This document shows positions 3,268 to 57,977 of a DNA stretch of 64,000 nucleotides, in pieces (within the stretch, counting starts at the first letter, position 1; every line of letters starts with the position of its first letter). Source of the DNA: Okamejei kenojei (taxonomy: Eukaryota); the NCBI GenBank assembly GCA_035221665.1, contig CM069143.1, positions 55,552,001 through 55,616,000 of the forward strand. The letters are read 5' to 3'. Made by a program: the position numbers and the translations under genes. The notes under the pieces were generated by a model, which saw only the letters and a program-made list of their open reading frames with translations, was not told the DNA's origin and ran no database searches.

Positions 3268-3654
3268 ATGCAGGATCACATTCAGAAATCCGGCGGTCGG
3301 AACCGCTCCGATAACAACAGCCCACGGAAGAGGGATTACCGCCAGGAGCCAGGGTCGGGGCCGGGCGGCGCCGCCAACAACCACCACCACCAGCAGCAGC
3401 AGCAGCAGCAGCAGCAACAGGCCCGACATGGCGACCGGGCCTCCTCCGCCGCCGCCGCCGCCCCCGGCATCACCGTCGACATGACCAATTTCCGCAAGCC
3501 CGGCGAGAAGACCTACACCCAGCGCTGCCGCCTCTTCGTCGGCAACCTGCCCAACGACGTGAGCGACGACGAGTTCAAAAAGATGTTCGAGAAGTATGGG
3601 GAGCCGTCCGAGATATTCATCAACAAGGATAAAGGCTTCGGCTTCATTCGCCTG
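3268..3654 (+). CDS. NONO: NONO coding exon 1 (H/Q-rich N-terminus and first half of RRM1)
   Basis: MQDHIQK...[22 protein letters not shown]...[10 protein letters not shown]. Donor CTG|GTGAGT, phase 0. Confidence 0.95.
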
Positions 3655-15600: not shown

Positions 15601-18600
15601 CTTATACAACTGCAACATGACCTCCCAAATTATATACTCAATACTCTGACTGATGAAGGCCAATGTGCCAAAAGCCTTTTTGACCATCCTATCTACCTGC
15701 GACTCGATCTTCAAGGAACCATGCAACTGCACTCCTAGATCCCTCTGCCCTACACCCCCCCAGAGTCCTATCATTCACTGTGTTGGTCCTGCCCTGGTTA
15801 GAAGTCCCAAAATGCAACACCTCACATTTCTCTGTATTAAATTGCATCAACCATTCCTCAGCCCTCCTGGCCAATCAATCAAGATCCTGCTGCAATCTTT
15901 CACAACCATCTTCACTATCTGCAAAACCACCCACTTTTGTATCATCAGCAAACTTACTAATCTTGCCCTGTATGTTCTCATCCAAATCATTGATGTAGAT
16001 GATAAGCAGCAATGGGCCCAGCACCGAACTCTGAGGCACACCACCAGTCACAGACATTTTAAATTAGCGATCAGTCGACAATACACAATGGCCTTCTGTG
16101 TCTGAAACGGGTATATCTGATGTATCTGACACAGGTGTCAGATACATTTTAAGAACTTCAATGCCAGGACCGTTGCCAGTTGTCAGAGGCATTTCTTTAA
16201 CAGATCCTGTTATTTACTGTAATCCTCCATACAAATTAAGCCGCTGTACTTGAGGGTGTAGAGCTTATTTTCTAGTTTGAATTATCGGGTAGTTGGGCAA
16301 CTATCAATTTTACTTATAATATTCATGTTTATCTCTTTTGCCAAAATATGCTTCCTCCAAAAGTTCGATTCTCGGGTTTTGTTTGTGAGAATCTGCTGAT
16401 TTTTGTCATTGTTTTCCAATGCCATAAAAAGCGTTCATTTGGAGAGGTGATGTCTATATAATTTAATAATGCTATTCGCTTGGCTGATTAATTGGTAAAG
16501 TTATCCTTGCAAAATGAGGAGCTTTCCAGTTGGATCTGTCAAGGGAAAAGTGCAAGTGAATATGTTAGATTCTGTTTCTCAGATTTTTAACTTCCTCTGT
16601 TCTTTCATTTAAAAAAAAAATCTTGTCACCCAAAGATCTAGAAGTGCGAAATGCACATCCTGTTCGCTTCCCATTTGATATTTTGCATTTTTTTAGGGTA
16701 GTGTGCAGTCAGACTTCTGAAGATCAACGGTGGTCTGATTTTTAATAAAAAAACCGTAATCTGAAGAAGGGTCACAACTCGAAACATCACCTGTCCCTTT
16801 TTCTCCAGAGATGCAGAAATTTCAGAAATTGGTTCAATAGTATTACATTTCTCAGTTTGTTTATTATTTACATTAAAACTAGCGTCTCTAACCTAAACGA
16901 TTTTCTCTCTGTAGGTTTCCAAGACCTGTGACTGTGGAACCCTTTGACCAGTGTGATGATGAAGATGGCCTTCAAGAGAAACTTGTTCAGAAAAACCAAC
17001 ATTACCACAAGTAAGTACTAAAAGTAAATTGGTTCAGCCATTGTGTATTGTCTATTGATCCCTAATTTAAAATGTCTGTGTTTTTAAAATTAGGTCTCTT
17101 GCTTTGGACCTGCTTTTACAAAGCTGTCAATAAAATACAGATGTGTGTAATAAATTGTACATAATTGAGTGATTTGGGATATAAAACAAGTACAGCACAT
17201 TTCTTCCTTGTATGAACTTTTGGGAATTCTGCATGCTCCAATCCAACCAGTTATAAGTGTGACTTACCAAATGTGGTTGTGCTTGTTCCCTCATGGATTA
17301 TGTTGTATAAATTCATTTGAATAGTTATGAGCTGACACCATAGCTTCCGAATTTAGAGGCGTGGAAAGTACTCTTTGCAAAACCTCATCTGTGTCAATTT
17401 TTACAGCGACTGAGATAACACATGGCTGAATACATTATGCAATGTGTGGTAGCCTCTTATAATCCATTCCAAAGGATTCATTGTGAATAAACAGGAAGAC
17501 GAACTTGCATGTCTGCTTGTGTGGGCCATTATTTTCCTCCCATTAGTTGGTAATAGATTGGGAGGGATAGCCTTGTGTTTATGAACTGTTGGTTTCTCAA
17601 TAAAAATGGATGAAAGTGCCTTAAATGTCAAGATCAGTCTGAATCAATCTAATTTTTCTTTACTGTAAATCATTCTATGTTAATTTGAGCATTTCAGTTA
17701 CTTTTCTAATTATCTTGCATTTGGATACCTGATAATCTATGTTGATATGTTTGTATTTGGGTAAGGGTTGCAGTGGTAACTTTTATTTGTTGTCTTGTAC
17801 TGAATTATAAGTTTTTCATACCTGACAATTTTTAAGGGAACGAGAGCAGCCACCACGATTTGCCCAGCATGGGTCATTTGAGTATGAATATGCCATGAGA
17901 TGGAAAGCTCTGCTTGAAATGGAGAAACAACAACAAGAGCAAGTGGACAGGAATGTGAAAGAAGCACGTGAAAAACTAGAAGTGGAATTGGAAGCTGCAC
18001 GTCATGAACACCAAGTCATGCTGATGAGGCAAGGTATGTTGAGAAGCAACCCATACTCTCCCCTCCTGTGCTTCTAAAGGCATTGACTTATGGTAAACAG
18101 GTGAATGTGAACAATGGATACATTTTGTTATGTTTTAATTCTATTTGCCTGTGTTGTCTTCCCATTCCTCTCTCAATTTTTACTCACTTCAATGTGACTG
18201 GCTACCAGATCAAGGGCTTTGGAAATCCTGGGTTTTGGTTTAGATTGCTAACCAGGTTGTTTAATTTGTTCTGTGGCTTAAGTTATTAAAATAATTGTCA
18301 GGCTTGGTGAGGAAACATTAGCTCTATTGCCTCTTAAATGGAAAGCTTATCAATATTTATGTAATTATAACTGCAATTTGTATATTCAGAATTCTTAAGC
18401 ATTTATTCAAATCCATTTAAAATAATTCTTTAATTTGTTTCACCGGCCATTTTATGTAATGTGTTGAGTTATCACCACTGTTCTTTCAGACATTATTTTA
18501 AGAATGTATCTCAATTATTGAATCTAATGGCACTCTGTTAATTATGAGAAATGTTCATGATTGTTGAAAATCAGTTTAATGTCCCTATAATCTATTCTGC

Positions 18601-21600
18601 TCACTCCAACCGTTCCTAGTTTCCTGTGCTTAACATGTCTAATTTCATGACCTCTGATCTGCAAAAATCAATAATGCTCATCATTAGTACAGGTTGAACC
18701 AATTTTCCGGCAACCCATGGTCTGCCAACCCCTATAATCCGGACAAAATAATGAGAGCTCAGTTGAAATTCCCTGAGTGGACACACATGGCATTGAGTGG
18801 CAAATGCTCTTTCCAGTTGCAACCCTCTGCCATGAAAGAATCAATTATACTCTCAATCTTCTCTCCTAATTGCAAAGATAATACAGTAAATCCTAGTTTA
18901 AACGGCCCCCTTATTACAGATGATGGATATAGCGGTTGGACCTGCTGACCCATCTCTGGTTCGCACCGTATCCCTGGCCGTTTAGAGCCCCGGCTTTCAA
19001 CCCCGCTCCCGACTCGCAAGGTGCACCAGCAAGCACTTCTTCACCCACCAAAAGGACACAAATTGCTGGAGCAATTCAGCGGTCAAGATCTCTGGAGAAC
19101 ACGGATAGGTGACATTGGGACCCTTCCTCAAACTGATTCAGTTGGCTGAGTTACTCTAGCACTTTCTCGTTTCGAACATTTCTACCAGCAAACCTCTCTT
19201 CACCATTAATTTGGTGGTTATTTTGGCATACACAGCACAGATGCAATGTATAAAACATGCTCAATAACTCATTTTACACCAAGTACCCCTTTCGCAGTCC
19301 TTCTTGGCATGCCAATGAAGGTTGGGTCTCAGACAGATGAGCAACAAATGACCGGAACTGATATTTGTCCCAAATATGTGGAAATCAAAGGTGCTTCTCT
19401 CCTGTCCCCACGGATGCAGAAGCAGCCTTTTTATGGTAACATGGGCTGAATTGGAAGATTCCTGGGAATGTGCACCACATTGACGGTGTGGGCTTATTTG
19501 TAGGAATTGAGTGGAGACTAGAATTAATCTATTGGTGATACTAAGTATAGAGAAAGATGAACCGAGTCTGAAATGAGCATGTCCAGGACAATTATAAAAA
19601 TAAATTGTTCTTAGAATTGTATAATTTAAGCATTTTAATTAACCAAGCTTTGGTCCATAGATTTAATGAGGCGTCAAGAGGAATTGAGGCGCATGGAAGA
19701 ACTACATAATCAGGAACTGCAGAAGCGAAAACAGATGGAACTGAGGTAAAGATCTTTTTTGCATTAAATCAGGGGTCGGCAACCTGGTTCTGCATAGGGG
19801 CTAGGACGCATGTCTGTGAGTGTATGGCGGGCCACATCTATCATGTGTACACATGACTCCCGCCCCGGATGGCAGGCAACAAATCACATGTTCACATAGA
19901 TCCCGCCCCTAGTTACGGGCGCTCCTGAACATGGCGCACCGACAGACCATTGCCTTGGCTCTGTCCTGAAGGCGGTAACTGAAATACACTCCCTCGTCCC
20001 AGGCCTATCGTCAACCCCGATCCCGACAGTGAAGCCCAGACCCAGAAGGTGCGCGGCCGTGCTGGCGGCTTTGCGCAGGATGCGGTACAGCCAGAGCTCA
20101 GCAATGCTCAGCAGCTCCACCATCGCGGCCGCCAGACATGCCATGCTTACTCCACCAAAAATGCCATGCTTACCTTGTTTGACCTATATGTGACTCGAAT
20201 CTTAAGAGTGGATGACTTAATGACCTTCGAAATGATTAGTAAGTCACTCAGTACTAACATTTCTGCAACGTTTGAATTGTATTGGGCACTAAATGTGGAC
20301 ATGGTAATGTTTCCAGCATGGCGGATTTTGTAAAATGTCCCACAAAACATCAGGAAATTGCTGTCTCTATTGGGAGAATGGCCCCACAGCCAGACATCAG
20401 CCTGACATTGTCAAAGTCTCAGAATGGTATATTACAATGTACCATGACAATACCTATTTCTTGGCCCAAGAAAGGATAGACCCATCAAAGTGGCCTTCAG
20501 GTGATAGGGACTAACATTTGGAAAGCTGAACACCGAGTCGCGGTACCCACAAAGTAACGTGGCGATTATGAAAACCACCATCTTATTACCAAGTATTTTC
20601 ATCTTTTAAGCAATTAATTAGTGTTCCTCCATGTTGAATGGTCCTGTAAGGAACAAGGCCACAGATTGTACTCTGCGTAGGCTTGCAGCTCCTGTCAGCA
20701 GGCGTCCTTGAGTCGCTGCGGCCTCTGGCCCGGGAGGTACCGGAGATGACGGAAGTCTGTGGGCGGATAATTACTGGGAAAAAATACTCCTGCTTTTGGG
20801 TTACGGGCCGCATTCGGCCCGGGGGCCATAGGTTGCTGACCGCTGCATTAAATTCTTGAAATATTTCTGGAAGACCTTTCTGACAGATAAGTCATCTTGA
20901 TAGGAATTGCACATATACACCCCAATCCTTTGTTTCTGTATCCATAAAATGGATTGAATCTTTTTTTTAATTGATGCATAATATTATAGTTGAATAAATG
21001 AAGATGGCATTTGGTGATGATATGGACAAAAGATGCCAATTGTTCTGAGATCTGTTGAGCAGTTAATATAAATTGCCATGTTTGGGGTTGGAGGTGATGA
21101 GATGGTTTGCTGGCGTGATGGTGTGGGAAGCAGAAGGAGTGTTGGTTTGGAAGTGTGTGCAGTTTGAATTTGAGTAGCAGTTTGGTAAGGAAGAGTATAC
21201 AATAAACCATCTTATTGGACACACGTCTCATCCCTTTCAGAGGTATCGCACACTCGTTGCCTACTTCCTCTATGTCTTGGTGGTTATCCAATTATCTTCT
21301 GCCTGCACCTTGGGTGTAATCACCTCACTGAAACGTTTATCCATGATGTCCTCAGCATCATGGATGCTTCTGAATGATTCCAACTGCAGCTCCAGCTGTA
21401 GAATGGTCATCCACGAGGTGTAACTCAACGCAATTCCCACCGATGAGCTTTATTGGAAAACTTTGAATTTGGCATGCAATTTGAATTTACGTGACCAAGC
21501 AAATAAGTTTTTGGCTTTTAAAAAAAAAAGACAATTTGTGCCGATTTTCCATAGCATCAGCAAATTACTTATGAAAAGAATTGTTTAATGATTTTTATGC

Positions 21601-24600
21601 TGAATTAATTTCATGTGGGAAGAATACATTTGATAACCTCATGATTTATTACCGTAGACAAGAAGAAGAACGCAGAAGACGTGAGGAAGAAATACTACTT
21701 CGTCAGCGTGAGAAGGAAGAAATGATAAGAAGACAGCAGGAGAGCTTTCGAGGAAACTTTGCCGAAACTGTAAGGGTTGTGAGATACTTGGGATGATATT
21801 GTTATACTGGAGGCCAAAACTGGAATTTTAAAAAGAAATCATAGTGAAGTGTTACATTTTGCACCATTTTACCAGCTATTTTGTGCAATAAGATGCAATA
21901 TGTTAATTAAGTCGACCCGAAACATCGCCAATTCCTTCTCTCCATAGATGCTGTCTCACCCGTTGAGTTCCTCCAGCATTTTGTGTCTACCTTCGATTTT
22001 ACCAGCATCTGCAGTTCTTTCTTAAGCATGGAATGATGAGAATTGTTTTGTAACTACAATCCTATATATCTAGCCATTGAGCTGATTATGAAAAATTGAC
22101 ATGATTATACAAGTAACTATCGAATCACATACAGACCTTGCACGTTAATGTATATTCATCTTATTTACTCTACATTTATTGCCATTTTGCAGTCTATCTT
22201 TTCTTCAAGGTTTAGAATACTGGCATGACTCGTCATTTCTGAATTTGTGTTTCTCGCCTATGTCAGAACAGTAATTAAGGGAATTGCATGTCATGCGAGA
22301 ATCTTTTTCTTTCACTAAATACAGTCCACAAATTTTCCAAATGAACTGTCGCCATTCTAATTCCATCTAAATGGCCTTCAGGAGAACAAACATGCCATGG
22401 TTGCTTTGTTTGACCTATATGTGACTTGAATCTTAAGAGTGGATGACTTAATGCCCTTTGAAATGATTAGCAAGTCACTCAGTACTAACATTTCTGCTAC
22501 ATTTGAATTGTATTGGGCACCAAACGTGGACATGGTAATGTTTCCAGCATGGCGGATTTTGTAAAATGTCCCACAAACATCAGGAAATTGCTGTCTCTAT
22601 GGGGAGAATGGCCCCACAGCCAGACATCAGCCTGACATTGTCAAAGTCTCAGAATCGTATATTACAATGTACCATGACAATACCTATTTCTTGGCCCAAG
22701 AAAGGATAGACCCACCAAAGTTGGTAGTATTGTGGCCTTCAGATGATAGGGACTAACATTTGGAATCCTGAGCACCGAGTCGCGGTACCCACAAAGTAAT
22801 GTGGCGATTATGAAAACCACCATCTTGTTACCAAGTATTTTCATCTCTTAAGCGATTAATTAGTGTTCCTCCAAGTTGAATGGTCCTGTAAGGAGCAAGG
22901 CCACAGATTGTACTCTGCGTAGACTTGCAGCTCCTGTCAGCATCCCCTGCTGAAAGTGCACATTATCGGCTGACCTGCATTCCTTCATGCAATTGATTTC
23001 TTGACGGATGCACAACATTAAGGGCCTTTTTACTAACCATTTTCCGCTTAGTGAGATTTTCGAGAGTAATTGGAAGGATGAATGTGTGATCTAAGCAAAC
23101 TAAATATTTTTCTGGAATGGAAAAAAGAGCATGGCACAGGATTTTATTGTGCAAATCTTCTTATTTTTCCAGAGAGAGAATATGAGGTTGGAAGAAATGG
23201 CACAACGTGCTGGAATGGCCATGCCAGGTGAGGCTTAAAAATTAATTTAAAATGGTAGAAAGTATTTTCTTTCCGGTGTATATATTTGCTATTTTATATG
23301 AGGAGTTACTTTGAATTTTTGCAAAAGTAATAACTGGTTTATTTCAGGCATGTGATAATGCTGATGGTTCTGTTTTTCTTTTCACAAAGATTTGGAGGTA
23401 ACATAAAACAGAACTTGCAGACAGTGAAATAATGATATGGATTTGGGGGTCACTGGTGTTGAAATTCTGTAGTGTGCATCTCACTCTTTTTCTCATTTTG
23501 AAAGCTTCCCATATGACTAAAAATGGTGGCTGAGCAGTCTGTCAGATTGAAGAACTAGTCAGTGTGGTTGAGATGTAGTCAGCTAACTGAATCTGTACTG
23601 CCTATCAGCCACCGATTTATACTAATTCTATTTTTAAATAATTCTTCCCACATTTTCCCTTTATCTCAATCGTTCCAAATACTGCCCACCCGCATCCATT
23701 ATTCTACCACTCGCTCACACACTATGGGTAATTTACAGTGGGTACTTAAAACTCCAAAGCTGCATATCTGAAATAAGGGAGCAGACTGGAGTGCCATTGC
23801 AGCACCACTCCTGTAACAATAGAAACCCATAAGTTCATAGGTGAATGCAATCTCCACGTAGACATCACCAGAGGTCACGATTGAACGTGGGATCATCGGT
23901 GCTGTGAAGCAGCAGCTTTACTAATGCTGCTGTGCCACTATTCTCAAACAAAGTTTAAAATAAATTATTTCAGATTTTAAGTTGGACTTCAATATGGTTA
24001 AGAAAGTTAAATACTTTCTAACATATTATTTATCTGAGAATTAGCATCTGTATAAGTATTATGCTCCCGAAAAGGCAATTGCTAAAAGGTAACTAGAATG
24101 CCGCATGCCATTTTAAAAGTCTGCTTTCACCTTGTGCAAAATTTTTTTGAGTACATTCTGAAAATATCGGAAATTCATCGATCACCAGTTTCGGAGCTCA
24201 TACTGGAGATAGTTATGAAACAGTTCCTGTGTTAACATTTATGGAAATAACTATGCATGTGTAGAGGTTGCTGTTGTTGCAACTGCCGTATCCAAATGGT
24301 TTGTGTTTGTATGCATGCTTTTTATTACATTAGTTTTGGATTTAGTGGGTTTTTTTCAGTTTCATTGCACACAAAGTTGACACTTCATGGTTTTAAATTG
24401 ATTTTGTTAGACCATTTCTTTTAAGAGAACGAAAAATTTCTTGGACTGGCTTATAGTAGTACTGCAGTTCTTAACTGTGAGTTTGCTGTCTCTACTATTG
24501 AGGCATTCCAGGACTAGCTGCACCTCCCGTCAAGCTGTTCCAGAACAGTAAGAACGCTGGCACTGATCCGACAATGGAAAATTGCCCAGGTATGTCACAC

Positions 24601-27600
24601 CGACAGAAGACAAATCCAGTTCTGGCTAAATACTGCTCAATGAGTCCGTTCTTAGTATATCAGCAATATAATGGACGATATTGTTGACAGTTAGTCATTC
24701 ACTAATAATTTGCTCACTATTGCTCAGTTTAGAATTTGGCGGAACCACTTGACTCTGGACCTCAACATCCTTGGTCCAAAGATCAAGGCAAATTTTGTCA
24801 GTGTGCCCTAAATGTGACCTGGTACACTTGAATGTAGTGGGCTAATGGCGAAAGCGCTCCACTGGTTGGATTTGCAACATATGCAAAGGATGATTTTGGA
24901 AATTGATGATGGTCAATCATGGCAGTCCCGAGATGTCACTCCAGGAGTTTTTCGGGATAGTTGCTGAGGTTCTTCAGCTGGTTCTTTTAATGATTTTCGT
25001 CTTATAGACAGAAGCGCAGACGTGTGATGATTAAAGTGTTTTATTCATTCACAACTGCATAAAATGAAACAGTTGATGCTTATTTGTACCATGACCTAAA
25101 TATTTAGGCAAGGGCTTTCATTTCTTTTGTTTAATTTATTTTCTGGAGTGCCACTGGCAAGCATGTGTATTGCCCATCCCAAATTGGCCGCATTTGAATA
25201 GCTGCAGACCTTCTGGTGAATATACTTGTACCGTATTGTTGGAAGCTGGTTCAGGATTTTGAATGAGAAGAAGGTGAAGGTGATATATTTCTAATTTGGG
25301 TATATCTGCAACTTGGGAGGAAACATGCAGGTATTTTCCCATGTACCACAAACCCGTGTCTCTTTCGTTGTTAGAGGTTGCAGGCTTGTGATGCTGTTGT
25401 ACATCCTGGGTGAGTCACTGCAGTCCATATTTTTTATGCGTTAGAAATAACATTTGCAATACTGGTGATGGGGTTATGAATGTTCAATATCATATTTGGA
25501 AAATCAGTCATGTAAGTTGCTTGGGCCTCAATGCTGTCAGGCATCATGAGAGTTGTCTTGATTATTTGAACGAGAGGACCGGAAGAAGCAGTGAAACGTG
25601 GTTGGGCCTTGAATCTTAACCTGTGGAACTTGTGCAGTGGGCTGGGACGTTGCAATCCAACAAACGATAACCATTTTCTTTTGTGTGAGCTATGGCTCTG
25701 GCCATTGGAGACCTTCCCCCTTGGTGCCCATTGACTTCTGTTTTACCAATGGATGCCACGTGATTAAATGCTGGCTTATTAATCACATTCTTTCTCACCT
25801 CTGGAGTTCGGTTCTTTGATGATGCATAGAGCTAAATGGTTCTGTCTTGAAAACCCAAACTGGGTGTCAGTGAGCCGTGAATTGGTGGACAAATGCCACC
25901 TGATAGCACTGTCAGTAACACTTACCATAGTTTTGCTGCTGATTGGATGCTTCTTGGCCAGATAGGATTAGATCTACTTTTATTGAATGTGCTAAAATAT
26001 TTTTCACTTGCGTGGATTGTACAGCTCCATTGACTTGGGTTTAACACTAAAGCAAAGCAGTTTGATTGATGAGCAGCTCTTCAATTGCCCTCAATTAAAC
26101 CAAACATTATTGTATATCATATTCTGAACTATATACAATAGTTACATACTGGGGCTACTAAGACAGCACCCTGTAAATCTGCAACTTCTGTCACCAAAAA
26201 TTTGAGTGCAACAGACAATCTGTTGTGTAATGAACTTTGGCTTTCCTTCAGGTATGATTATTACCCTGACTTCATGGACCTCGACCTTCATACCCAACAT
26301 TACTGGTCATATCTTCACCAGAGGGTAGTAGACAACCTGGATGCAAACACTCCAAAATGATTTGAGTGAGATGATGGGAAGTGTTGGTATTCCATGCAGT
26401 GACCAAGTTTTGAAAAATGTCCCAAGTCCATATATTGATTCATGTTTGCAGTCCAGAATGCAAAGAAATGCATATGGTCCAACCATTTCTACACACGGTT
26501 AATGCAGGTTTGTTAATGTGATTGTATGGTTAAAATATCGTTTTTTTTAAATAGAAGGATAGAATGTATAAATTAAAAGTGGGATTTCATCTGTTTTGTC
26601 TGATCATGAAAGCTAAGTTTGGACTTGACCTCGTATTTAGCGAGATGTCAATCATATTGTATACTTGGATTATTCTCGTCGGTTCTTTTGTGTGAATGGT
26701 TTTATTTTGAGGTTAAATTTGGCCCTTTTGAAGATTCTAAATGTGGCTTTTCCCATGAAAGAATAAATTAGAATGATCAAAATACTACAGTCCAAGTTTT
26801 TAGATTGTATTTGTTTACCAATAGGATATTGCAGTGCTAGGAGTTCTCTAAATTTTAATCTCTGCCTTATGTAGAGCAGTAGCCTTCCTGTGAATGTTTT
26901 TATCAACATTTGGGGATCCATTTGGCCTACTATATGTTTTGCTATGGACCAACTTGAGAAGACTTGGATATTTTAGGAATCTTCATTTTAGTTCCATAGA
27001 TCTTATTTGAATACATATTACAGTATATTAAAATGACTGCTTTTGTTGGTTTTAGGAAAGCAGAATAATATCTTCCTTTCCTGTGAAATAACTTGTCTTC
27101 ATTGAAACTAACAGCTAAGCCTTTATATCCCCAATATTCATCCTGTGCAGTTTGGTTGTAAGCTTGGAATCAATTTTAATGAAAGGATGAATTTAGAACA
27201 TTCAAAATTTGACTATTAAAGTATTCTTTCCAGTGTTCCTTCCAGTATTGAATTGCAGTGGCAGTCTAGGAATGTGAAGCTCTAAATATGTTGCATGTTT
27301 TCCTCTGCACTTTTATGTTTTTAGTTTTCTTATTCCATGTTCCTGTTTTGTGGAAATCATTCAAATATATTTAAATTGTGCAATGTTCATTTAGAATGGC
27401 AGTGCTTGGAATTTGTTTTAATTTTGTTTTTCTGCATCTATTCATTTTAGTGGGACTATCTGCAGTTGATTTCTCAAATCTTAAAGCAGGTATGTAATTT
27501 TTAAATTTCATATAATTTGCACCTCTTTAGTTGCTGAAATGATCCCAAAATAGAATTGTTGAATGGAGATAATAAATCAGTGCAATCGCAATCTCAAGAC

Positions 27601-30600
27601 AATATAATAGACTGCCTAATCTTATATAGAACAAAGTAATGTAAACCGGACTAGAAAAGAATGGGAACCTGCTTGAATTATAAGAGTTGATGGTGCAGGG
27701 ATCTGCATTTTGGGCAAGTAGCTGCCAGATGAATGGCAAATGTTATAATTAATTCTTCAGTCAATATTTTACTAAAACACTGTATTCGCCAGTCTCTACA
27801 AACCAGGTTCCGCAGCCACTTATGGGAATGAACAGACCCACTGTGAATACTAATGCACCACCACCTCAAGGTCCACCTGGAAGCCTGGGAAACCAAATGC
27901 CAGAAAACAACATTGGATTGGTAATGTATTAAATATGTTGCAAAATATAACTAACACGGTAGAATATAGATGTGGATATAAGAAGAATAGTAAGTGAACC
28001 TGAGCTTCCAGGAATATTTTTATTCTTTCAAGTGTTAGTAGGGGAAAGAATGTGGCTAAAATCAAACATTATATAGTTATGTTCGTTGGTGTGAGTTTGG
28101 TGAAGCTCTAACTATATTTGCAATATGTAGAGCATTTTGTTTAGTGCTTTAATTCTGGCAAGTTTTACTTAACCAACACATAACGTCAGTGTACTGATTC
28201 CTTTTCTTGTAGAAGAGGATTTTTTTTCCTTTACTAGATTTTCAGCCATGTCCTCAAAAAACTTTAAAGCTATGCCTTATTTTTGGTTTAGAGTGCTCGG
28301 ATAGATTATCTGACTTTGGCTCTTATCCTATAGTGATATTGTTGCCAATATTTCATAATTACGTGCTATTTTCAAAAATGTTCTCGTATATTGCACAATA
28401 ATTTATTCTGGGTTAATTCTATGTCAATGTGACATGGAATTATACAAGAGAAGAAAACCAGCAAGATTTAATATAGTATAGTCTCTAAAATGTCACTGCT
28501 TTCTTAATTCCAAGTTCTCACAGGAAAAATTGATCCGAACTCCATTACACCAGGCTTGCGTTGTAATGGTTATTAATCTATCGGTTTATACTAATTACAT
28601 TGAAAGCGGCGTATGCTTTTCTTTCGTGAATTTAGTAATACATTTCAAGATAGCTGTATGAAAGACACAAATTTCTGACCTCCCAGTTACTTTCTAAATG
28701 GCAAGTTGCCATTTGCGGAAGCAATTTATTTGTAAGGGCAATGCTTTTTCTTTAGCGGAAGAATGTTATTTCTTCATTAGCAGCTTTTAGTCTTGTTTTA
28801 ATATTCTGTAATACTTCTGATCTGATCAGATCATAAGGCTACTAGCTGATTTTCAATTTATCTATTGATCTCTAATTGCTTTCTGGAGTAAATAAGGATA
28901 AATTATGATGAGTCCCCTGCTAGACCAACATATGCATAACTTAATACCAGGTTCGGTAAACGTTTGAACTGGGTTTACACATAGTACCAAAATGAGATTG
29001 TGAATGGATAGAAAAATAAAAGAAAATCCAAAGGGAAAAGTTTGAATGCAGACTTCTGGAAATACTGAGGAAGTGGTTTGAGTTTAAATAGGTGAAAGTC
29101 AATTTCTCAAAATAAAATACTTACAGGGAATTATTCTTAATTTGTATTCCAGTTTTGCATTCCATTTATCCGGTTTCTTGTGGACTTAACTGTTTCAGGC
29201 TCCGTGATTATATTGAGAACGTTACTTCTTATGTATTCTTTTGACATGGATTTTGTTCCAATAAGATTATATACTATTGCCTGGTCTGTAATTCCATATA
29301 TTTCTTAATGCAGTTAAAACAGTTTCTGTGTATACTGTCACCTCTTTACATTGGATTTCTGTATCCACACTTGTAAAACTGACCGTTTAAGCTTGTAGAC
29401 TAAAATGACATGGTGGTGGTGGTGGTGTTGTATTCCAATCACCGAAAGGAGAAAGCACTTGTATTTGTGCTAAGCTTGTATAAGAATTTATTATGGAAAA
29501 ACTATGTGCAGAATGTGACTTAAAATCGATATGAGCTACATTGATACACTAATGTGCCTATAGCTTGCACATGGTCTCTATTCTGTGCAGTGTCTCAGGA
29601 GGTTAACTGTAAAATAATCCATAATTGGCAAGCAGGTACTAAACTTTGAGAGTTATACATTCAAAAGGCAATACCACTTAACTTAGTGTGGATATGCCAA
29701 ATCATTTATTTACACCCATAGTGAATAATGAGATATTGTACTGAAATAAATGGCACTAATGGGACGATGGATACCTATATCAGTTTTGATGGTGCTGTTA
29801 TACAAGGCTTTTGTGTCAACAATTGCAAAAACATTTTAGAAACTTAAAGCTCATATTGCCCAACAATCATTTTTTTAAGAAACTCCAGCCTACCTGACTT
29901 ATTGCCAAATCACTCATTCCATTCTTTGTCTGAAAGCTATTCGACATCGGAGTCTATTAGTACAATATTCGGATTATACGGTGTCCTGTGTAGCTTATTA
30001 TCAATTGAAAACAGCACTGCTAAGTTTAGTTCCCATTCGTTTTCTTGAATAGGATTATACTGACTTATGCATATTATAGTTACACGTCGCCAAATAGATT
30101 TGGTTAGTTGGGTTTTCTGGAAATCACTTTTGAATAGAAACATTTCTGAACCTGATCTACATAAGGCAGCCACTCATCATGAATATATTGATGCTGGGAA
30201 AAATTAAACCCTTAATTTATCAAAGAATTTTAATGTAAAATGATTTGGTGTCTTTTGATTGTTATGGGGAAGTTATTGTTCTATTAGGCTATGTTTTCCC
30301 CCATGAGATGCCATAATTTAGACTAATTCAGTAATCTTTAAGCAGTGGCCAGGACTATTAATTAATTTTAGTATTATTTGGAGGGCACGGCCTCAACATA
30401 GGAAACAACCTTGCAGATATTTTGTATAATTATATATTTGGAACTAGTGTTCTACGTTTGTATGTCTTTGACAGTTTGACAATTGATCTTATATACGTCT
30501 TCTTGTAGTTGTCACTACATTAATGCACCAGCTACTGTTTTTTATTTGCAGATATTAATTGGACTTTTAGAATTGAAATTTAATTTTTGAGTGATGAGAC

Positions 30601-33600: not shown

Positions 33601-34312
33601 ACTGAGGCTTTCTAGTTAAGCCCAGTCTTTGAGCATGCTTCTAACAAAGGTGATTATATCCTATTTAACTGATCTGTAATCTACACAAACCAAAACCAGA
33701 ATTTGGAACCTGTTAAAGTGTTGACACTTATTTAACAAAGAAATGCTCAAGTGTTTGTGTACATCATTTTTGGACCTTAATTCATATCAGGATACTTTGA
33801 GTGCATGTACTATTCTATCTGATAACTTCTGACGTGTGTGTGTGAGTCTGTGCATCTACAATTGATGTTCCTGAAAGAGTAGTTGGCTTACCTTTTTTGT
33901 TTTCTTTGTTCTCATTTTGTACATTTATATTTCGTCAGTTTTAGTAAGTGCTGTATACAGACAGCAAGTGGAAGGTGCTGAAATGTTTCCCTAAGTTTGT
34001 TATTATCTTGTAAGTCTAATATAATTACCCCTTTCCCTTTTTTTATCGGTACTTCTGGACCCTGCTGAATTTCATCGTTCCATTGGGGATTCTCAACCTG
34101 CCTAATGTAAAATCTACGTTGGACTTGCAATGAACATTAATATCCATTTCTACGCATTTTAAATAAATTAATAGCCTAATGATCGATTTGTTCCTGGAAA
34201 TATGGATGGTCAAGCAAATAACATGGGCGGACCGATGGTTGGCAGCCCTGCTGGGTTTCCCCGTGGAAATCAAGTTGCAGAGTTTGGTGCAAACAAGCGT
34301 CGTAGATACTAA
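3268..34312 (+). CDS. NONO: NONO / p54nrb (DBHS family), spliced CDS: join(3268..3654,12220..12521,16915..17010,17837..18033,19661..19745,21658..21769,23173..23227,27793..27920,34175..34312), 499 aa
   Basis: Exon lengths 387+302+96+197+85+112+55+128+138 = 1500 nt, open frame, all introns GT-AG. Domains: RRM1, RRM2, NOPS, coiled coil. Residues [28 protein letters not shown], an N-terminal H/Q tract and C-terminal [10 protein letters not shown] fit NONO better than SFPQ or PSPC1. Confidence 0.93.
3382..3462 (+). repeat. Coding trinucleotide repeats (CAC)3 (CAG)8CAACAG and (GCC)5
   Basis: Read directly from the sequence. Encodes H3Q10 and A5. Confidence 0.9.
3840..4590. repeat. Cluster of Penelope-derived 3' repeats including a fold-back pair
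   Basis: Several copies of 'gatgctgcctg...gctgagttactcc'. Arms 3958-4029 and 4041-4112 are inverted repeats. Confidence 0.7.
5335..5480 (-). mobile_element. SINE fragment (HE1/V-SINE-like)
   Basis: CR1-like tail 'gaaacaggtccttcggcccac' joined to 'ccaattaacctacaaaacctgtatgcctttggagtgtggga'. Related to the copies at ~23720 and ~44270. Family name is from recall. Confidence 0.55.
5840..6085. repeat. Unclassified interspersed repeat with GCTATAGGATCTTTG ends
   Basis: The motif occurs at ~5919-5933 and ~6068-6082, with CAAAGAT in the opposite orientation. A similar motif sits at ~2713-2727. Confidence 0.35.
6190..6680 (-). mobile_element. Degenerate CR1 LINE RT fragment
   Basis: Minus-strand reading [11 protein letters not shown] resembles the RT motif SGVPQGSVL. 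'tacacagtactccaggtgtggtct' matches the younger CR1 copies. Confidence 0.55.
7090..7890. repeat. GC/G-rich unclassified insertion, probably a non-autonomous element
   Basis: Abrupt G-rich, CpG-rich block in an AT-rich intron, with an internal repeated 'gtgac(g/t)tcactcgctg'. No coding similarity recognised. Confidence 0.35.
8682..8848. mobile_element. Tc1 deletion derivative (MITE-like), 167 bp
   Basis: TA|CAGTGCCCTCC ... GGAGGGCACTG|TA. The interior matches the right TIR of the Tc1 at ~50915-51045. Confidence 0.85.
11030..11310 (-). mobile_element. Penelope-like element 3' end (ORF end plus 3' repeat), followed by an inverted partial copy
   Basis: 'gaaattggagaagtcagtgtacataccgctgg' (minus reading [10 protein letters not shown]) resembles the segment at ~62645 and is contiguous with the abundant 3' repeat. 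Confidence 0.6.
12220..12521 (+). CDS. NONO: NONO coding exon 2 (end of RRM1, RRM2)
   Basis: TTGCAG|GAA acceptor. [14 protein letters not shown]...[12 protein letters not shown]...GAFLLT. Donor GC|GTAAGT. 302 nt. Confidence 0.97.
12640..13660 (-). mobile_element. L1-clade LINE fragments (ORF2 piece and 3' end)
   Basis: ORF 13317..13706 reads [14 protein letters not shown]...[15 protein letters not shown]...[14 protein letters not shown], the L1 EN-RT linker. A T-run at ~12628-12645 could be the poly(A) tail. Confidence 0.75.
14190..14700 (-). repeat. GC-rich interspersed repeat, related to 42630-43300
   Basis: Both share 'aacatcca(c/t)cacag(c/t)g..aatc...ctgtgatggaag(g/a)caa..aagtc' and have a short tandem tail at the left end. 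Confidence 0.55.
15265..16055 (-). mobile_element. CR1 LINE RT fragment, frameshifted
   Basis: [36 protein letters not shown] and [11 protein letters not shown] spread across ORFs 15490-16057. Confidence 0.9.
16915..17010 (+). CDS. NONO: NONO coding exon 3 (NOPS)
   Basis: CTGTAG|G acceptor. [31 protein letters not shown]. Donor AA|GTAAGT. 96 nt. Confidence 0.96.
17837..18033 (+). CDS. NONO: NONO coding exon 4 (NOPS / coiled coil)
   Basis: [25 protein letters not shown]...[10 protein letters not shown]. Donor AAG|GTATGT. 197 nt. Confidence 0.97.
19661..19745 (+). CDS. NONO: NONO coding exon 5 (coiled coil)
   Basis: CATAG|AT acceptor. [28 protein letters not shown]. Donor AG|GTAAAG. 85 nt. 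Confidence 0.96.
19770..20845. mobile_element. Non-autonomous hAT element carrying captured local DNA
   Basis: TIRs CAGGGGTCGGCAACC and GGTTGCTGACCGCTG. Perfect 8-bp TSD CATTAAAT at 19762-19769 and 20846-20853. Confidence 0.9.
21658..21769 (+). CDS. NONO: NONO coding exon 6
   Basis: [37 protein letters not shown]. Donor ACT|GTAAGG. 112 nt. Confidence 0.94.
22392..22942 (+). repeat. Intronic segment duplicated at 20161-20700 (possibly an ancient LINE remnant)
   Basis: Colinear, near-identical direct copy, visible by eye over ~550 bp. Confidence 0.9.
23173..23227 (+). CDS. NONO: NONO coding exon 7
   Basis: TTTTTCCAG|AGA acceptor. [18 protein letters not shown] (compare mammalian REQEIRMGQMAM). 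Donor CAG|GTGAGG. 55 nt. Confidence 0.88.
23720..23940 (-). mobile_element. Degenerate tRNA-derived SINE
   Basis: B-box-like GTTCAATC on the minus strand (~23880-23887). Similar to the copy at 44270-44460. Confidence 0.5.
24490..25950. mobile_element. Ancient degenerate LINE fragments
   Basis: 'tggaaaattgcccaggta' (WKIAQV, pre-RT motif) on +, followed by a decayed minus-oriented segment. No intact ORF. Confidence 0.4.
27451..27489 (+). CDS. NONO: Predicted 39-nt in-frame cassette exon of NONO ([13 protein letters not shown])
   Basis: U-rich tract with TTTTAG| acceptor and CAG|GTATGT donor. Phase 1-1 matches the flanking exons, with no stop codon. Confidence 0.65.
27793..27920 (+). CDS. NONO: NONO coding exon 8 (low-complexity G/P/M region)
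   Basis: GCCAG|TC is the only nearby acceptor that keeps frame. [15 protein letters not shown]...PPPQGPPG...MPENNIGL (compare MPDGTLGL). Donor TTG|GTAATG. Confidence 0.85.
30640..31179. mobile_element. Old Tigger/pogo-like non-autonomous element
   Basis: Imperfect inverted termini AGGTAGTTCTGTTA and TAGCAGAACTATCT. Confidence 0.4.
34175..34312 (+). CDS. NONO: NONO final coding exon with C-terminal NLS
   Basis: AATAG|CCT acceptor. PNDRFVPG...[24 protein letters not shown]. Confidence 0.93.
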   Translation, partial: PNDRFVPGNMDGQANNMGGPMVGSPAGFPRGNQVAEFGANKRRRY

Positions 34313-35056: not shown

Positions 35057-35393
35057 AATAAATCAAATATAAACCCACCTTTTTGAAATTGATACCCTCT
35101 AGTTTGTTCACAGTTGCTTGGTATACGTTGCAATACACACTTTAAGATGCAAATAAAGTTCTCGGCAATCTTTCCTGTATTGTAATGTATTCATTTACAG
35201 CCCCAATTTTTTTTTTTGTTAATAATTAATGTATTGTTGGTGCTCATTCCTCTAGTATTTTTTTTTATTTTGCAAAGTATGTTGCCTTTCATTTCAATTA
35301 TTCATCATTTGTAGATTTAAGAGTTTTTTTTTTTGGAGTCTTTTTTGTTTATAGGTGAAATCTGACCTTTTATCTTGGACATTGTTAAATAAA
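35057..35393 (+). terminator. NONO: Proximal poly(A) signals of NONO
   Basis: AATAAA at 35057, 35152 and 35388. The 35152 site is followed by GT/T-rich sequence. Confidence 0.65.
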
Positions 35394-44460: not shown

Positions 44461-47116
44461 TGTTTTCCTCCTGAATTTTTATCATCTGTTTCGGGAATGT
44501 TTTATCATTTGGTTTCCTGTGATTTGATTTGGCAGTGCCCCTGTCATTTTACACACCTGGCCAGCAGGTATCTGGATATTCAGTCATTTCTCTACCTTTA
44601 GCAAATTCTTCACCAATGAGCTGCAAATGAAGGAGAGACAAAAGAAAAAAGACAATTACATTTTTTCTGTCCTTTTTATGACTTTTATGTTGCTTTTTGA
44701 GCCACAAGTTAAATGTGTCTAAAGGTGAATCTTCCAGCAAGCAATGTTAGTAATAGTTTTCAACAATATGAAACAATCATGAATCTAGTTTTAGATTAGG
44801 TTGCCCTTTGTTAAGAACTTGAGGATTGCAGCACTATTAGATTTTTGGTGATGAACATGTTCTACCAGTTTGCAGCCTGGATTACTGTAATACTGCTGTG
44901 CGCATGTAAATTAAAGTTTTCATTTAAAGAAGAAAATCTGAATATTGTAATAAGCTTTGTTCATATTTATTAGAATGTGCAATTGAGCAGAAAATGTATT
45001 GTGGACGAATAGAAACTTTTTGGCATAAATTTATATTCCTCAAAATATTTAATCGATCAGATAGTATTTGAAAAGATAACATTTTGGAATGTTTCATCGG
45101 GCAAGTGCTGCTGAAAGGTAATCAGTCTGAAATGTGATTCATTTTCCCTTCTCTACAGATATTGCCTGACCATTTCAACATTTCTGTTTTACATTTACAA
45201 CAATTGCAGTATTTTGTTTCATTTCCTGATATTCAAAATGTATCTAATGTATTTAGAAGTAGTTTTGTTTCTATGCTAAAATGCACAGATTCTAGAATTA
45301 GTTGATTTCGACCACCTCCAGTTTAAATTCCATTTGGAATATTTTGGAGGACCAGGAAACCAAGAAACAAGACCGTCATCAACACTAACATAGCTTCACT
45401 TTCAATCATGAATATGAATCAAACTCTGTTGTAAATAATTATGATCATAATTCATATAATATGACCAAAAATACTATCTTATTAATAGGATGGTGCACCA
45501 CTTCTTTGATTGCATCCAGATTGCAAGTTCACATCAAATCTGTTGCTCTGAGTATTGATTAACTTAGTGGGAGAATACATCCTGGTTCACAAGGTGCAGG
45601 ATTCGAATGGTGCTCCGGGTAATGCCAGCCCAACATTAAATTTGTAACGTTATTCAGCTGGGTGCTCGTGTCCTATTGAATACCAAACTCTTCAAATGTC
45701 TGGGACTCTGATGGCTGATGTAAAAATACTATATCAAAGATTGTAATAATTGTTATCAACCTACAAGTCATTTTGCTGTTCTACACGTTTCCAAGGAAAA
45801 CTCACCATTGCTCTTACAAAATACAGTTTGTTTTCTTTATGCTGCTATTATTTAAAACAAAAACTTGATCCACCATTATGAAGATGCCTTGTCAAGGTAG
45901 GATGTGGAAGAGTACATATTAGGTGACATCTTGTACATAATATCTTGATCAAATAATTTTCTGTGCTACCAGTGGAGGGTGCTATCAGTAAACCTGAGTG
46001 CATGGCCTCCAACCAAAACTTGGCGTTTTGTGTTCATGTTGAATCTAGTGTTTTATCACAGCAAATAAATATTTGTTACAAATACTGAAAGTGTTTTAAT
46101 GTATTGAACACACCAATGGATTCATAACCTTCCATATTTCAACTCTGCAATATAAACTTTCACCCTCTAACTAATCGCTAAAGAATATCTGCCTAGTCAT
46201 TTTCCAATGTCCTTTGGAAAATGCATTAAACTGTGGATTTGGCCACTCGTAGCTGCTGAAGTTTCCATAGCATTACCTGAAGAAAAGCAAGTAAACCTAT
46301 TTGCCTGTTGTATTTCACTAAGTGTACCTTGTATTGTAACACAGTTCTGAAATCGTGAAATACTGCATAAATGGAAACTTTTACTTGAGTTTCATTCATG
46401 TTTGGAGTTATGTTGCCTGTATACATGCAGAGCTGAATTGCCTTCTGACTTCAGTCTTAATAATGTAGCTATTATATATTGCTCAAGTATATCCTCTTTG
46501 GCTTCTATAATGCTGTTGTTTAGGCTTAAGTGAAGATTTTTACCTCAAGCGCAACATTTTCCAAACCAAGTTAGAGCTCCATAATGTTTTCTGTCTTGCT
46601 CATGGCACCTGAATTCTGCCTGTGGTTAAACAGTGATTACTCTTCCTGTAATTCTTTCCAGATTATTTGTACACTTTTAAATTCATTCCACCATCCTTTA
46701 ATTTGATGCAAGCTACTTGCAACTTTATGATCCCATTTAATTAAATTGAGCAACTATTGTGCAACCTTGAGTTTGATCTTTTGTGAAGTTAATCATGTGT
46801 TCCACAGTGCCCTGTAGTTTTAATTGATCTTAATTATTTTTGTTTTCCTTGGTTATCTGTGTTCAATTTGGATGTTGCTAAGAAAATTAGTTAAACTTTT
46901 CACCATCTGTCATTGTCTCATTCTTTAGAATCCATTTCATTTGGCAAATTGTCTGTGACGTGCTTTCTAACATATATAAATGTTGAAATGTGAGTAAACT
47001 GTTATGTGCTATTTCTTTTAATCACCAACCCACAGTTCCTTTAATTCCTTCATCAATTTTACTCAATTATTTTAATGTGGATTTCAGCAAAAAGAGAAGC
47101 CTGTTTCTTGCTACAG

Positions 47117-47191
47117 GTGGAAATGGTAATGGTTGGTGAATAAGCGTAGGTACAGAATGTATTAAATCAATTGCAAGATTTTTTTAAACAG
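47117..47191 (+). other. NONO: Predicted distal alternative exon of NONO encoding VEMVMVGE*
   Basis: TTTCTTGCTACAG|GTG acceptor, stop TAA 47141-47143, consensus donor CAG|GTGAGT. In phase 0 with exon 27793-27920. Confidence 0.55.
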
Positions 47192-48378
47192 GTGAGTTAA
47201 TTGAACATTTTACTTTCATTTTTGTTTCATTACATAAATCCATTTTGAGCTATTGCTGAACACTTGAAATGCTCCACCATTTCAATAGAGTTTTTGGGAA
47301 CAATGTTTTTTCTTTCTCCATTCAAAACTCATGCTGTAACTGACTTTGACAGTTTCTTCATATCATTCAAATTAGGAGTTTTGCACCTTCATGTACTAAG
47401 ATGGGACAGGTTTTTGAATGGATAGTAAAGTTATTAAAATTAAAATTCTACCTATCCAGCAAAGAAAACTAACTTGCTTTCCAGGAACATTTTTTCTCTC
47501 TCGTAATTTAACATTATTTCAGGCTTCCTCTAGGAAACAAGGTGCAAGAATTAAGGACGCAAGGCAAAAGTGCACACTCTTTATTTGCAGAGAAAATCAT
47601 CGTGAAGGTGAAGAGAAGTTTTGCATTGACAACACTAAATTTCAAATATATATTCCAGAAAATATATTTGTCTTCCTAATTGGCCCTGGAACCAAGTGGC
47701 TTGCTAAGTCATTTCAGAGGTAGATGAGACAATTGCAACGGTTGTGTTCAATGTTGCAGACAAGGCGAGGAGGACACATTTCCTTCATTTTTAAATACAT
47801 TGGCCTAAGGGATTGATATTATCCAAAAATGGCCACCAATATGGATATTTCTATTTATTTAAAAAATTCACTATGGGGCTCAAACATACTTTTGTTAATC
47901 ATTAATCCAGTTCTCTGCCCATCAAATCATAAAAAAAAAATGTTTAAATCTGAAAAGAATTGGTAGTTATTTGATGTGTAATATATTTAGCAAGTGCCAA
48001 CAAATCGGGGCACGGAATCCTTGTAGAAGAGGTTTACGTTGCCTCCAGTTCTAAATTCATTCTAAATTCCAGTATTTTGACAATACCCAATCTGACAATT
48101 CTTTTCAAGAACAAAAAAAAATAACCCGCGGTGTTCTTCATGATTAAAATCAATGGCCTACATGAAGGTGCAACTTATTTTTATGCATTTTGAAAAATGT
48201 GACTTTTTAAATATGCTCCTTTTGTACTGTAATTTACATTGCATCTTTAAATACAAAGATAGGTATTCTTTGCTATTGTTTGATATTCCTGCAGAAAATT
48301 AACATTAAAAAAAAACGAATTTGTCCCGTTCCCTCCTTGTTCTGATGTAAAAGTTAATTGTAATATTTAGGTGTGTAA

Positions 48379-48384
48379 AATAAA
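48379..48384 (+). terminator. Candidate distal poly(A) signal
   Basis: AATAAA preceded by several TGTA motifs and followed by GT-rich sequence, at the end of a repeat-free AT-rich tract. Confidence 0.4.
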
Positions 48385-49418
48385 ATATCTCTAGTATGTG
48401 GACATGGTATGCTTTAATTCTTGAATGCTTTGAGTGATAACATGAAAATAGAGTGCATTCTATTTTAGGTTCTCACATCGACACAAAATTCTTGGATCAA
48501 TTATTTGTAATTGGTAATAAGGTAAATCACCAAATTTGCTGCATTTGTAGACGTGTATGTTTCCAGTAATACATGTTTAGATTTCAATAGACAAGAGGTG
48601 CAGGAGTAGGCCCTTCGAGCCATCACTGCCATTCAATGTGATAATGGATCATTTCCCGCAAGTGATGACCAGTGGCATCTGAGTGAGAAATTATTTGTGC
48701 TAAGATTAGGAAATGTCATGTTCTCTTAATAGGTATGTCAGATTTAATATGTAGTTAAGATAAATGGTAGTTGTTAACAGAGGTTTTCAAGCTTTTTTGT
48801 TTCATAGGAACACAAGATTATGATCAGGGCTAAGTTGTATACCTTCTTGAATTCTGCCATTAAATTAGATCATGGCTGGACTAATCAAGACCCCGAACTC
48901 TACAGGCCAAAAATTTAGTTCTGCCATCAATTAACAAGGATTCGGCATCCATAGATCTGGAATAGAGAATTCCAAAGATTCAGAATTAGAGATTTACTTT
49001 TTTTTTCACCCCCAGCACTTGATCTATTTCAACATTCCACAGCATCCACACTGTCAAGTGTCGTGAAGACATTAAATTTAAAGAAGGTTTTACTTGAGTT
49101 TCTAAATTATACCCAATCTGCTTGCTTCCATAATGCACCCCAACCAGCAACTCAGTGAACTTCCTCTTGACTGCTTCCATGGTGATTGTATGCTTGGAAA
49201 GTGGTAGTCAACATTTTATACATTACCCAATATGTGATCTTATCCCAGTGTCACAAGTTTATTCTAATTTTATACTCCATTTCCTCTTGCAACAAAGATT
49301 TGCCTTCATAATTACTTGCTATACTCCCCTCAACCCCACCCCCCCACCCCCCCCCCCACACATTGCATTTTTCTGCGTGAGCAGGGGACTGGTGGAGGAG
49401 ATACCAAACTAAATTTAA

Positions 49419-51045
49419 TAAAGACCCATCATTTATTTATTTGCCTCTGTACTCCACAGTTTGAAATTTGTAATAGAAAAAGTCACATGAGGTTACAGTG
49501 CACCGTGTCAGATTTTAATAAAAGCCATCTTTATACATTTTGGTTTCACCATGTAGAAACTACAGCAGTTTTTACACAAAGTCTCCCCCCCCCCCCCCCC
49601 CCCCCCATTTCGGGGCACCATCATGTTTGGGACACAGCAATGTCGTAAATGAAAGTAGTCATGTTTAGTATTTTGTTGCATATCTTTTGCATGCAATGAC
49701 TGCTTGAAGTCTGATTCATGGACATCACCAGTTGCTGGGTGTCTTCTCTGGTGATGCTCTGCCAGGCCTGTATTGCAGCCATCTTTAGCTTATGCTTGTT
49801 TAGGGGGCTAGCCCACTTCAGTTTTCTTCAGTTTATAAAAAGCATGCTCAATTGTGTTCAGATCAGGTGATTGACTTGGTCACTCAAGATTGACCATTTT
49901 TTAGCTTTGAACAATTAATTTGTTCTTTTAGCAGTATGTCTGGGATCATTGTCTTGCTGTAGAATGAACCGCTGGCCAATGTGTTTTGAGGATTTTGTTT
50001 GTACTTGAGCAAATAGGATGCGTCTATACACTTCAGAATTCATTATCCTACTACCATCAGCAGTTGTATCATCAATGTAGATAAGTGAGCCAGTACCTTC
50101 AGAAGCCATACATGCTCGGGCCTTAACACCACCGTGTTTCACAGATGAGGTGGTATGTTTTGGATTTTGGGCATTTCCTTCTCTCCTCCATACTTTGCTC
50201 TTGCCATCGCTCTGATACAAGTTAATCTTTGTCTCATCTGTCTACAATACCTTTTTCCAGAACTCTGGTTGCTCGTTTAAGTACTTGGCAAACTAACCTG
50301 GCCATCTTATTTTTGCGGCTGACCAGTGGTTTGCATCTTGCAGTGTGGCCTCTATTTTTGTTCATGAAGTCTTCTGCGGACAGTGGTCATTGACAAAACC
50401 ACACCTGACTCCTGAAGAGTGTTTCTGATCTGTCGGACAGGTGTTTGGGGATTTGTCTGTGTTATAGAGAGAATTCTCTGTCATCGGCTGTGGAGGTCTT
50501 CCTTGGCCTGCCGATCTCTTTGCGATTAGTAAGCTTACCAGTGCTCTCTTTCTTCTTAATGATGTTCCAAACAGTTGATTTTGGTAAGCCTAAGGTTTAG
50601 CTGATGTCTCTTTTAAGAGTTTTATTCTTGTTTCTCTGTCTCATAATGGCTACTTTGACTTTCATTGGCATAACTTTGGACATCATGTTGATGAACAGCA
50701 ATAAAAGTTTCCAAGGGTGATGGAAAGACTGGAGGAAAGACTAGATGCTGAGAGCTCTCTTATACCTACATTAAGGAGCTAATTAAACACACCTGAACAA
50801 TTACAAACACCTGTGAAGCCATGTGTCCCAAACATTATGGTGCCCTGAATTGGGGGGTGGGGGACAATGTATGAACACTGCTGTAATTTCTACATGGTGA
50901 AACCAGCATATATAAAAATGGCCTTTACTAAAATCTGACAGTGCACTTTAACCACATGTGATTTTGTTTCCTATTACAAATCTCAAACTGGAGTACAGAG
51001 GCAAATAAATAAATGATGGGTCTTTGTCCCAAACATTATTGAGGC
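49419..51045 (-). mobile_element. Tc1-family transposon, near full length, defective transposase
   Basis: ~210-bp inverted termini (49419-~49635 and ~50823-51045) with repeated TGTCCCAAACATTAT. Transposase remnant ...SVKHGG...FILQQDNDPRHTAK. Likely ATG near 50686. Confidence 0.92.
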
Positions 51046-57710: not shown

Positions 57711-57977
57711 AAACAAAGTTCTTAAGTAAAATAAAAGTACTGGAATGAGAAACAGCCAACATTTCAAGTTGAGGATCCTTTGTTAGGACCTAGAGTCTGC
57801 TGTCTTATTATAGTATAATGGCATACTATTTGCTGCATTCAACACTGGTGCATTTTTACTTCCATTGACTAATCCATATATGCCCAGGTCCCATTGAACT
57901 CCCTTTCCTAATATATTGCTGTTCATATAATCGTTCTTCCTGTTATTGCCACTAAAGTGGATCAAGTTCCTTCTATC

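Follow-up and report, generated by a model that had tools for sequence, protein, structure and literature searches.

A candidate distal short-tail exon downstream of skate NONO and its likeness to the SFPQ short-isoform exon

Introduction

DBHS proteins carry a C-terminal NLS (PMC4872119). In human SFPQ, exon 9 can be joined to exon 11, giving altSFPQ, which has two introns downstream of the stop and encodes a short isoform lacking the NLS, 669 aa long, of which 7 are unique to it (PMC12372870). This path is NMD-sensitive and is promoted by SFPQ itself, and the altSFPQ protein is cytoplasmic and shifts the location of NONO (PMC6547761; PMC12372870). An isoform termed SFPQ-F has also been described (PMC7582472). 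The altSFPQ switch is treated as specific to SFPQ and is currently attracting interest in work on ALS and on the homeostasis of RNA-binding proteins (PMC12372870). The NONO locus of a skate raises the question of whether such a switch is older than the split of NONO and SFPQ, as a short exon-like unit with a V-initial reading frame lies far downstream of the canonical NONO stop. The analysis addresses two points: whether this unit is an exon of NONO, and whether it shares its ancestry with SFPQ exon 11.

The host gene

The window, that is, the whole 64-kb stretch of DNA analysed, contains a single complete DBHS gene, which lies on the + strand and is skate NONO as judged by similarity and phylogeny. 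Its coding exons were mapped by tblastn with named chondrichthyan NONO proteins, followed by refinement of the boundaries. Exons 1-5 lie at 3268-3654, 12220-12521, 16915-17010, 17837-18033 and 19661-19745, and exons 6-10 at 21658-21769, 23173-23227, 24512-24589, 27451-27489 and 27793-27920, all on the + strand. Exons 1-10 (3268..27920) comprise 1479 nt in all, with AG/GT at every junction and zero internal stops, so that the donor at 27920 is in phase 0, as the initial annotation of this DNA had claimed. The canonical last coding exon (34175-34312, + strand) adds 45 residues with the C-terminal sequence NKRRRY, assigned as the NLS by homology; the stop is at 34312 and the canonical product has 538 aa. 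Among PDB constructs of similar length, exon 4 scores 115.6 bits against NONO, 100.9 against PSPC1 and 86.5 against SFPQ. In a tree of 27 DBHS cores, rooted at the midpoint only, the skate gene falls inside the chondrichthyan NONO clade (97/92), the NONO side being supported at 98/93, and its DBHS core is identical to that of Amblyraja radiata.

The 78-nt exon at 24512-24589 is in frame; P0006-P0008, the representatives from skates and rays, have its peptide, and those of whale shark, sawshark and chimaera lack it, suggesting that the exon is either alternative or batoid-specific. The longest stretch free of within-window repeats (22943-35550, 12.6 kb) runs across exons 7-11, including the last intron of 6.25 kb, and may reflect constraint.

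Splice sites of the last intron

In protein alignment, the exon-10 junction, in phase 0, precedes [DE]RF by two residues in skate NONO, SFPQ and PSPC1; it is homologous in all three. The alternative donor of exon 10 (27918..27931, + strand) is the weakest NONO donor, with 5/9 consensus positions, and reading through it would encode VMY*. Its positions +1 to +9 are identical (9/9) to the start of a published human SFPQ intron-9 fragment. The chance of identity at +5 to +9 is 0.0025 from base frequency, or 5/1003 as counted over GTRA sites, and the remaining NONO donors match only 0-2 of these 5 positions. The human motif can be placed at the intron start because a turtle SFPQ (P0185) has the read-through tail VMYP; a caecilian SFPQ tail, VTYP, likewise fits the human intron-9 start. 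The 3' motif of the human fragment has no match in the skate. A non-consensus last-intron donor thus appears to be conserved and common to the paralogues NONO and SFPQ.

The acceptor of the canonical last exon (34155..34174, + strand) is the weakest of the 10 NONO acceptors, with pyrimidines at 3/10 positions. The last intron is therefore flanked by the weakest donor and the weakest acceptor of the gene, which fits the expectation for a regulated choice. Candidate canonical poly(A) signals, recognised by sequence only, are found at 35057, 35152 and 35388 (35057..35393, + strand), and an isoform using a more distal exon would need to read through all three.

Anatomy of the distal exon

The distal acceptor (47097..47116, + strand) ends in CAG and has pyrimidines at 8/10 positions. 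It precedes a candidate exon of 75 nt (47117..47191, + strand) that encodes VEMVMVGE, followed by TAA at 47141-47143 and 48 nt of 3' UTR, and is closed by a donor with 9/9 consensus positions, CAG/GTGAGT (47189..47197, + strand). The predicted join of 27920 to 47117 covers 19.2 kb and reaches 12.8 kb beyond the canonical stop at 34312; it would yield a 501-aa protein in which the tail VEMVMVGE* replaces the 45-residue NLS exon. The positions reported earlier for the acceptor, the VEMVMVGE frame, the TAA, the donor, the ACTAAC, the AGs and the AATAAA, together with the 12.8-kb distance, were all correct on recheck. The unit had been presented as a terminal exon module. Its 75 nt do stand out beyond chance, but the donor that follows at 47191 makes it an internal rather than a terminal exon.

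Matches to MAG/GTRAGT occur twice on the + strand of the window (14187 and 47191) and 0 times on the - strand, and the one at 14187 sits directly before a repeat. Downstream of the canonical stop there are 13 donors with at least 8/9 consensus positions, of which 47191 is the sole 9/9, bearing out the earlier description of a perfect donor 48 nt past the stop. The exon lies within 44144-48586 (4.4 kb), which has no within-window repeats and is second in length only to 22943-35550 among such stretches.

A recursive splice site consists of an acceptor followed immediately by a strong reconstituted donor (AG/GTRAG). The candidate of a recursive splice site or RS-exon at 47117 was rejected, as the exon start GTGGAA makes a poor reconstituted donor.

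Similarity of the tail to SFPQ short-isoform tails

A profile was built from 29 SFPQ short-isoform tails of named tetrapod proteins with equal clade weights, leaving out P0166 and P0185 (intron read-through), P0201 (chimeric) and P0230 (sardine, with a non-V tail). The tails were chosen for their V start, so that a match at position 1 is by construction. Against this profile, the skate VEMVMVGE ranks first among the 7587 AG sites of both strands. It keeps the first rank when the profile is limited to non-mammalian tails, which are related to the mammalian tail and hence do not provide a fully independent test, and ranks second with the mammalian tail alone. Its score of 10.4 falls at the upper end of the range of true SFPQ tails scored against other clades (-0.8 to 11.3). 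In a Markov simulation of 6 Mb, 7/326,800 AG sites reach 10.4, and 0 do so while also having a good acceptor. As the profile includes V by design, and V is common at exon starts, a separate score was taken for positions 2-7: 33/122,880 sites match as well (P 2.7e-4), and 8/122,880 (6.5e-5) when a length of 6-9 residues is required too. The signal comprises 8 codons only, at a site originally chosen by eye for its resemblance to SFPQ. Against frog tails alone, positions 2-7 show a weak similarity (P 0.04).

SFPQ tails differ greatly among tetrapods, their length and first residue being better conserved than the peptide. Bovids have VRMIDVG (P0150, P0151), turtles VKMMQAE-like tails, an alligator VKMLQVE, squamates VKVIPAG-like tails, and frogs VMKVGIG or VWNLDTG-like tails. 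The bovid proteins, together with a published human altSFPQ probe primer that translates as MIDVG* (PMC12372870), agree with the statement in the initial annotation that VRMIDVG replaces the last exon of SFPQ at this junction in the short isoform. The V-x-M-[IV]-x-V-G pattern drawn from it describes mammals, but does not extend to the varied tails of other tetrapods. The resemblance to the SFPQ exon itself is strengthened, given that non-mammalian tails also rank the site first and that the upstream donor is common to both genes at +1 to +9. The initial annotation cautioned that a 7-residue resemblance might be chance; the match persists without the first residue and under composition matching (see below).

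Two independent criteria thus agree on 47117-47191, which holds both the sole 9/9 downstream donor and the top-ranked similarity to SFPQ tails. On these sequence grounds, the unit is probably a real exon, spliced from NONO exon 10 to 47117.

Short tails at the homologous junction are also seen in an Accipiter PSPC1 (P0130; 9 residues, profile score -2.5) and in the Sardina SFPQ (P0230; 8 residues, profile score -4.5), neither of which fits the profile.

Ends of named DBHS proteins

Protein ends were surveyed in the best 120 of 424 matches of a NONO search (23 skipped as unnamed or known from sample collections only) and in the best 120 of 495 matches of an SFPQ search for long DBHS proteins (2 skipped on the same grounds). 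The proteins are representatives of 90% clusters, and representatives hide isoforms. Among the matches listed, 69/102 named SFPQ representatives have the canonical end, 29/102 a V-initial tail of 6-8 residues at the equivalent junction, and 4/102 another end. A short V-initial tail is found in 0/97 named NONO representatives and in 0/14 chondrichthyan SFPQ representatives among the matches listed. The six chondrichthyan NONO clusters comprise 96 members, of which only the representatives were compared, so that absence of the tail is weak evidence for sharks and rays. For bony-vertebrate NONO, the absence hints at either loss or non-annotation.

Non-canonical NONO ends diverge exactly at the exon-10 donor in 8/13 cases among the matches listed. 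The chondrichthyan proteins P0005 and P0006 leave from this donor into 53-residue tails, which are unlike the skate tail and were not found in the 64-kb window by tblastn; a search of the ESM Atlas with the P0006 tail gave no usable match. P0006 (Amblyraja radiata), the closest protein among the matches listed, is a full NONO named as a VSIG4 isoform and is probably a merged or read-through gene model. Such conjoined models (P0005, P0006, P0021, P0028, P0029, P0054 and others) skip the last exon from the exon-10 donor, as the skate isoform would. They differ in that their tails are mostly long, mutually unrelated and often derived from a neighbouring gene, and none is short and V-initial. Exon 10 compared with longer proteins gave 7 candidates, which comprise only the six known chondrichthyan representatives, and 0 matches in a 50%-identity protein library.

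The 3' part and NMD geometry

One or more putative 3' UTR exons may occupy 47468..48400 (+ strand), with ACTAAC at 47468-47473, AGs ending at 47484 and 47522, exon starts accordingly at 47485 or 47523, and AATAAA at 48379. The initial annotation read these elements as a branch point, two acceptors and a UTR-like tract ending in AATAAA, a reading that is not supported, as the later acceptors and the AATAAA at 48379 are at background level. A crude acceptor filter, which passes only 5/10 real NONO acceptors, is passed by 16 sites in 47192-49500, including 47485; 47523 fails it. The branch A is usually farther than 13 nt from the acceptor in U2 introns, and the one proposed here is just 13 nt away from 47485. 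The + strand has 30 copies of AATAAA after 34300, 13 of these between the canonical stop and the distal exon; the copy at 48379 is the first downstream of the exon. Its upstream 100 nt contain 3 UGUA, against 0-1 at five comparison sites, an excess that lends weak support to 48379 as a poly(A) signal.

NMD is expected where the stop lies more than 50-55 nt upstream of the last exon junction. The stop of the tail is 48 nt from the first downstream junction (47191), at or under this limit. A putative second intron (candidate donors 47607 and 48521) would extend the distance from stop to junction to 65-1085 nt and so secure NMD. The NMD geometry of the distal isoform thus appears borderline.

Origin of the distal exon

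The predicted skate isoform resembles altSFPQ and SFPQ-F in stemming from a DBHS gene and in its point of departure, a homologous donor in phase 0 whose +1 to +9 are identical. It further resembles altSFPQ in using a distal exon beyond the canonical last exon, in replacing the 45-residue NLS exon by a short V-initial tail, and in having a donor after the stop. It differs in that the exon belongs to the paralogue NONO, its tail has 8 residues rather than 7, and three human primers show no detectable match to the region at nucleotide level. Expression, NMD and autoregulation have been shown for SFPQ, whereas the skate exon is a candidate recognised by its sequence. Taken together, these features suggest that the distal exon and SFPQ exon 11 are probably homologues, both descended from the gene that preceded the split of NONO and SFPQ. 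The switch thus likely predates their duplication.

Alternatively, the exon could be real and spliced from NONO exon 10, yet have arisen independently in cartilaginous fishes, the likeness of the peptides being convergent. Autoregulatory stop exons recur in genes of RNA-binding proteins, and convergence would be made easier by the way exons commonly begin with G/GT and by purine-rich exon sequence. The coding part of the distal exon is in fact 70% purine, and composition-matched shuffles of the exon weaken the P value to about 1e-3 (0.0009 with all tails, 0.0017 with non-mammal tails). The three published human altSFPQ primers (21-24 nt) have no match above background in 47100-48450, their best local ranks being 121, 219 and 87, although this comparison has low power because the tails diverge even within tetrapods. 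NLS-less isoforms from other junctions or lineages have been reported as well. A short mouse PSPC1 of 391 aa, compared with a 523-aa form, is like the predicted skate isoform a DBHS isoform that lacks the C-terminal NLS (PMC4395133, citing Myojin 2004); ending ~130 residues before the long form, it must leave at an earlier junction, judging from the lengths. In Chironomus Hrp65, alternative splicing likewise yields NLS-less DBHS isoforms, whose location is set by the dimer partner, but in an insect (PMC4872119; PMC12372870). Even so, the similarity remains at about 1e-3 when matched for composition and at 6.5e-5 when length is included, and convergence would have to extend to the junction, the phase, the stop position (within one codon) and an unusual donor. 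An independent origin is thus unlikely.

A pseudo-exon, in which splice-like signals arose by chance in AT-rich downstream DNA, is quite unlikely. The distal splice signals alone are unremarkable, since the Markov null expects 0.56 pairs of a good acceptor and a perfect donor per 29.7 kb, and the 3' elements are no better than background. However, the expected count falls to 0.064 for an acceptor, a donor and a frame of 6-9 residues, with similarity not yet required, and the sole perfect donor coincides with the best of 7587 peptide matches.

A further reading is that the exon is real but part of a different transcript, either a non-coding RNA or read-through towards the next gene from other upstream exons, and is never read in the V frame. 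This is very unlikely: the frequent joining of the exon-10 donor to unrelated exons among the matches listed, the VSIG4 name of P0006, and a CpG-rich stretch at 42.7-43.5 kb and a weaker exon candidate at 42830-42888, both upstream of the distal exon, all speak for it, but it leaves the top-ranked in-frame peptide match unexplained, the CpG-rich stretch has the look of a repeat and not of a promoter (intron-2 match, E 3e-7), and only a reverse transcriptase exceeds the Pfam cut-off in the 61 ORFs of 35.5-64 kb.

Possible mechanism and implications

If the distal exon is the counterpart of SFPQ exon 11, the weak exon-10 donor would normally be spliced to the NLS exon through the weak acceptor of the latter, with cleavage of the RNA at about 35.1-35.4 kb. 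Were this acceptor and the poly(A) sites bypassed, the donor would join the well-defined distal exon. The resulting mRNA would encode a DBHS core that is intact and able to dimerise, followed by an 8-residue tail in place of the C-terminal NLS, and one or more introns would lie beyond the stop. If SFPQ serves as a guide, binding of DBHS protein to the pre-mRNA would promote the distal path, so that NONO would limit its own expression through NMD and also yield a small cytoplasmic isoform. Working NMD and autoregulation of skate NONO via the distal exon are plausible rather than probable on this analysis. Equally tentative is the fuller proposal that the whole altSFPQ switch (weak donor, distal short-tail exon and post-stop intron) was present in the ancestor of NONO and SFPQ, survives as a working autoregulatory or cytoplasmic-isoform switch in cartilaginous-fish NONO, and was lost in bony-vertebrate NONO.

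The vertebrate DBHS duplications took place more than about 450 million years ago, and homology of the two exons would date the switch to before them. A homologous NONO exon would offer a natural comparison for deciding which role came first, NMD or the cytoplasmic protein. If the switch is ancestral, the post-stop intron would be ancient, contrary to the published suggestion of a protein role preceding the coupling to NMD, and the conserved donor positions +1 to +9 would become a regulatory element of interest in SFPQ.

No description of such a NONO exon was found in the literature, which was judged mostly by title and start of abstract and in which subscription papers are thinly covered; the accessible parts of PMC7460575, PMC13648420, PMC5405110 and a bioRxiv preprint contain nothing on such an exon. 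The type of switch is thus known, and its presence in NONO and the implied pre-split origin appear to be new.

Surroundings of the exon

In the 61 ORFs of 35.5-64 kb, no Pfam family other than reverse transcriptase exceeds its curated cut-off, in a scan that would miss short exons; one ORF has a sub-threshold match to Hen1_N. Rfam gives 0 matches across the window. Inverted repeats in 27793-48600 amount to 186 pairs (raw count), the longest being 70-83% complementary and none outstanding. The reverse-transcriptase fragments lie at 56027-58934, in degraded retroelements. The CpG-rich stretches at 42699-43500 and 14263-15000 have a 5' segment in common (73% over 97 nt), 42699-42787 matching the intron-2 element at 14263-14354, and are likely members of one mobile-element family. 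A promoter at 42.7-43.5 kb was rejected on account of this shared sequence, which makes the stretch probably a repeat. The perfect donor at 14187 lies immediately before the first copy (14263-15000).
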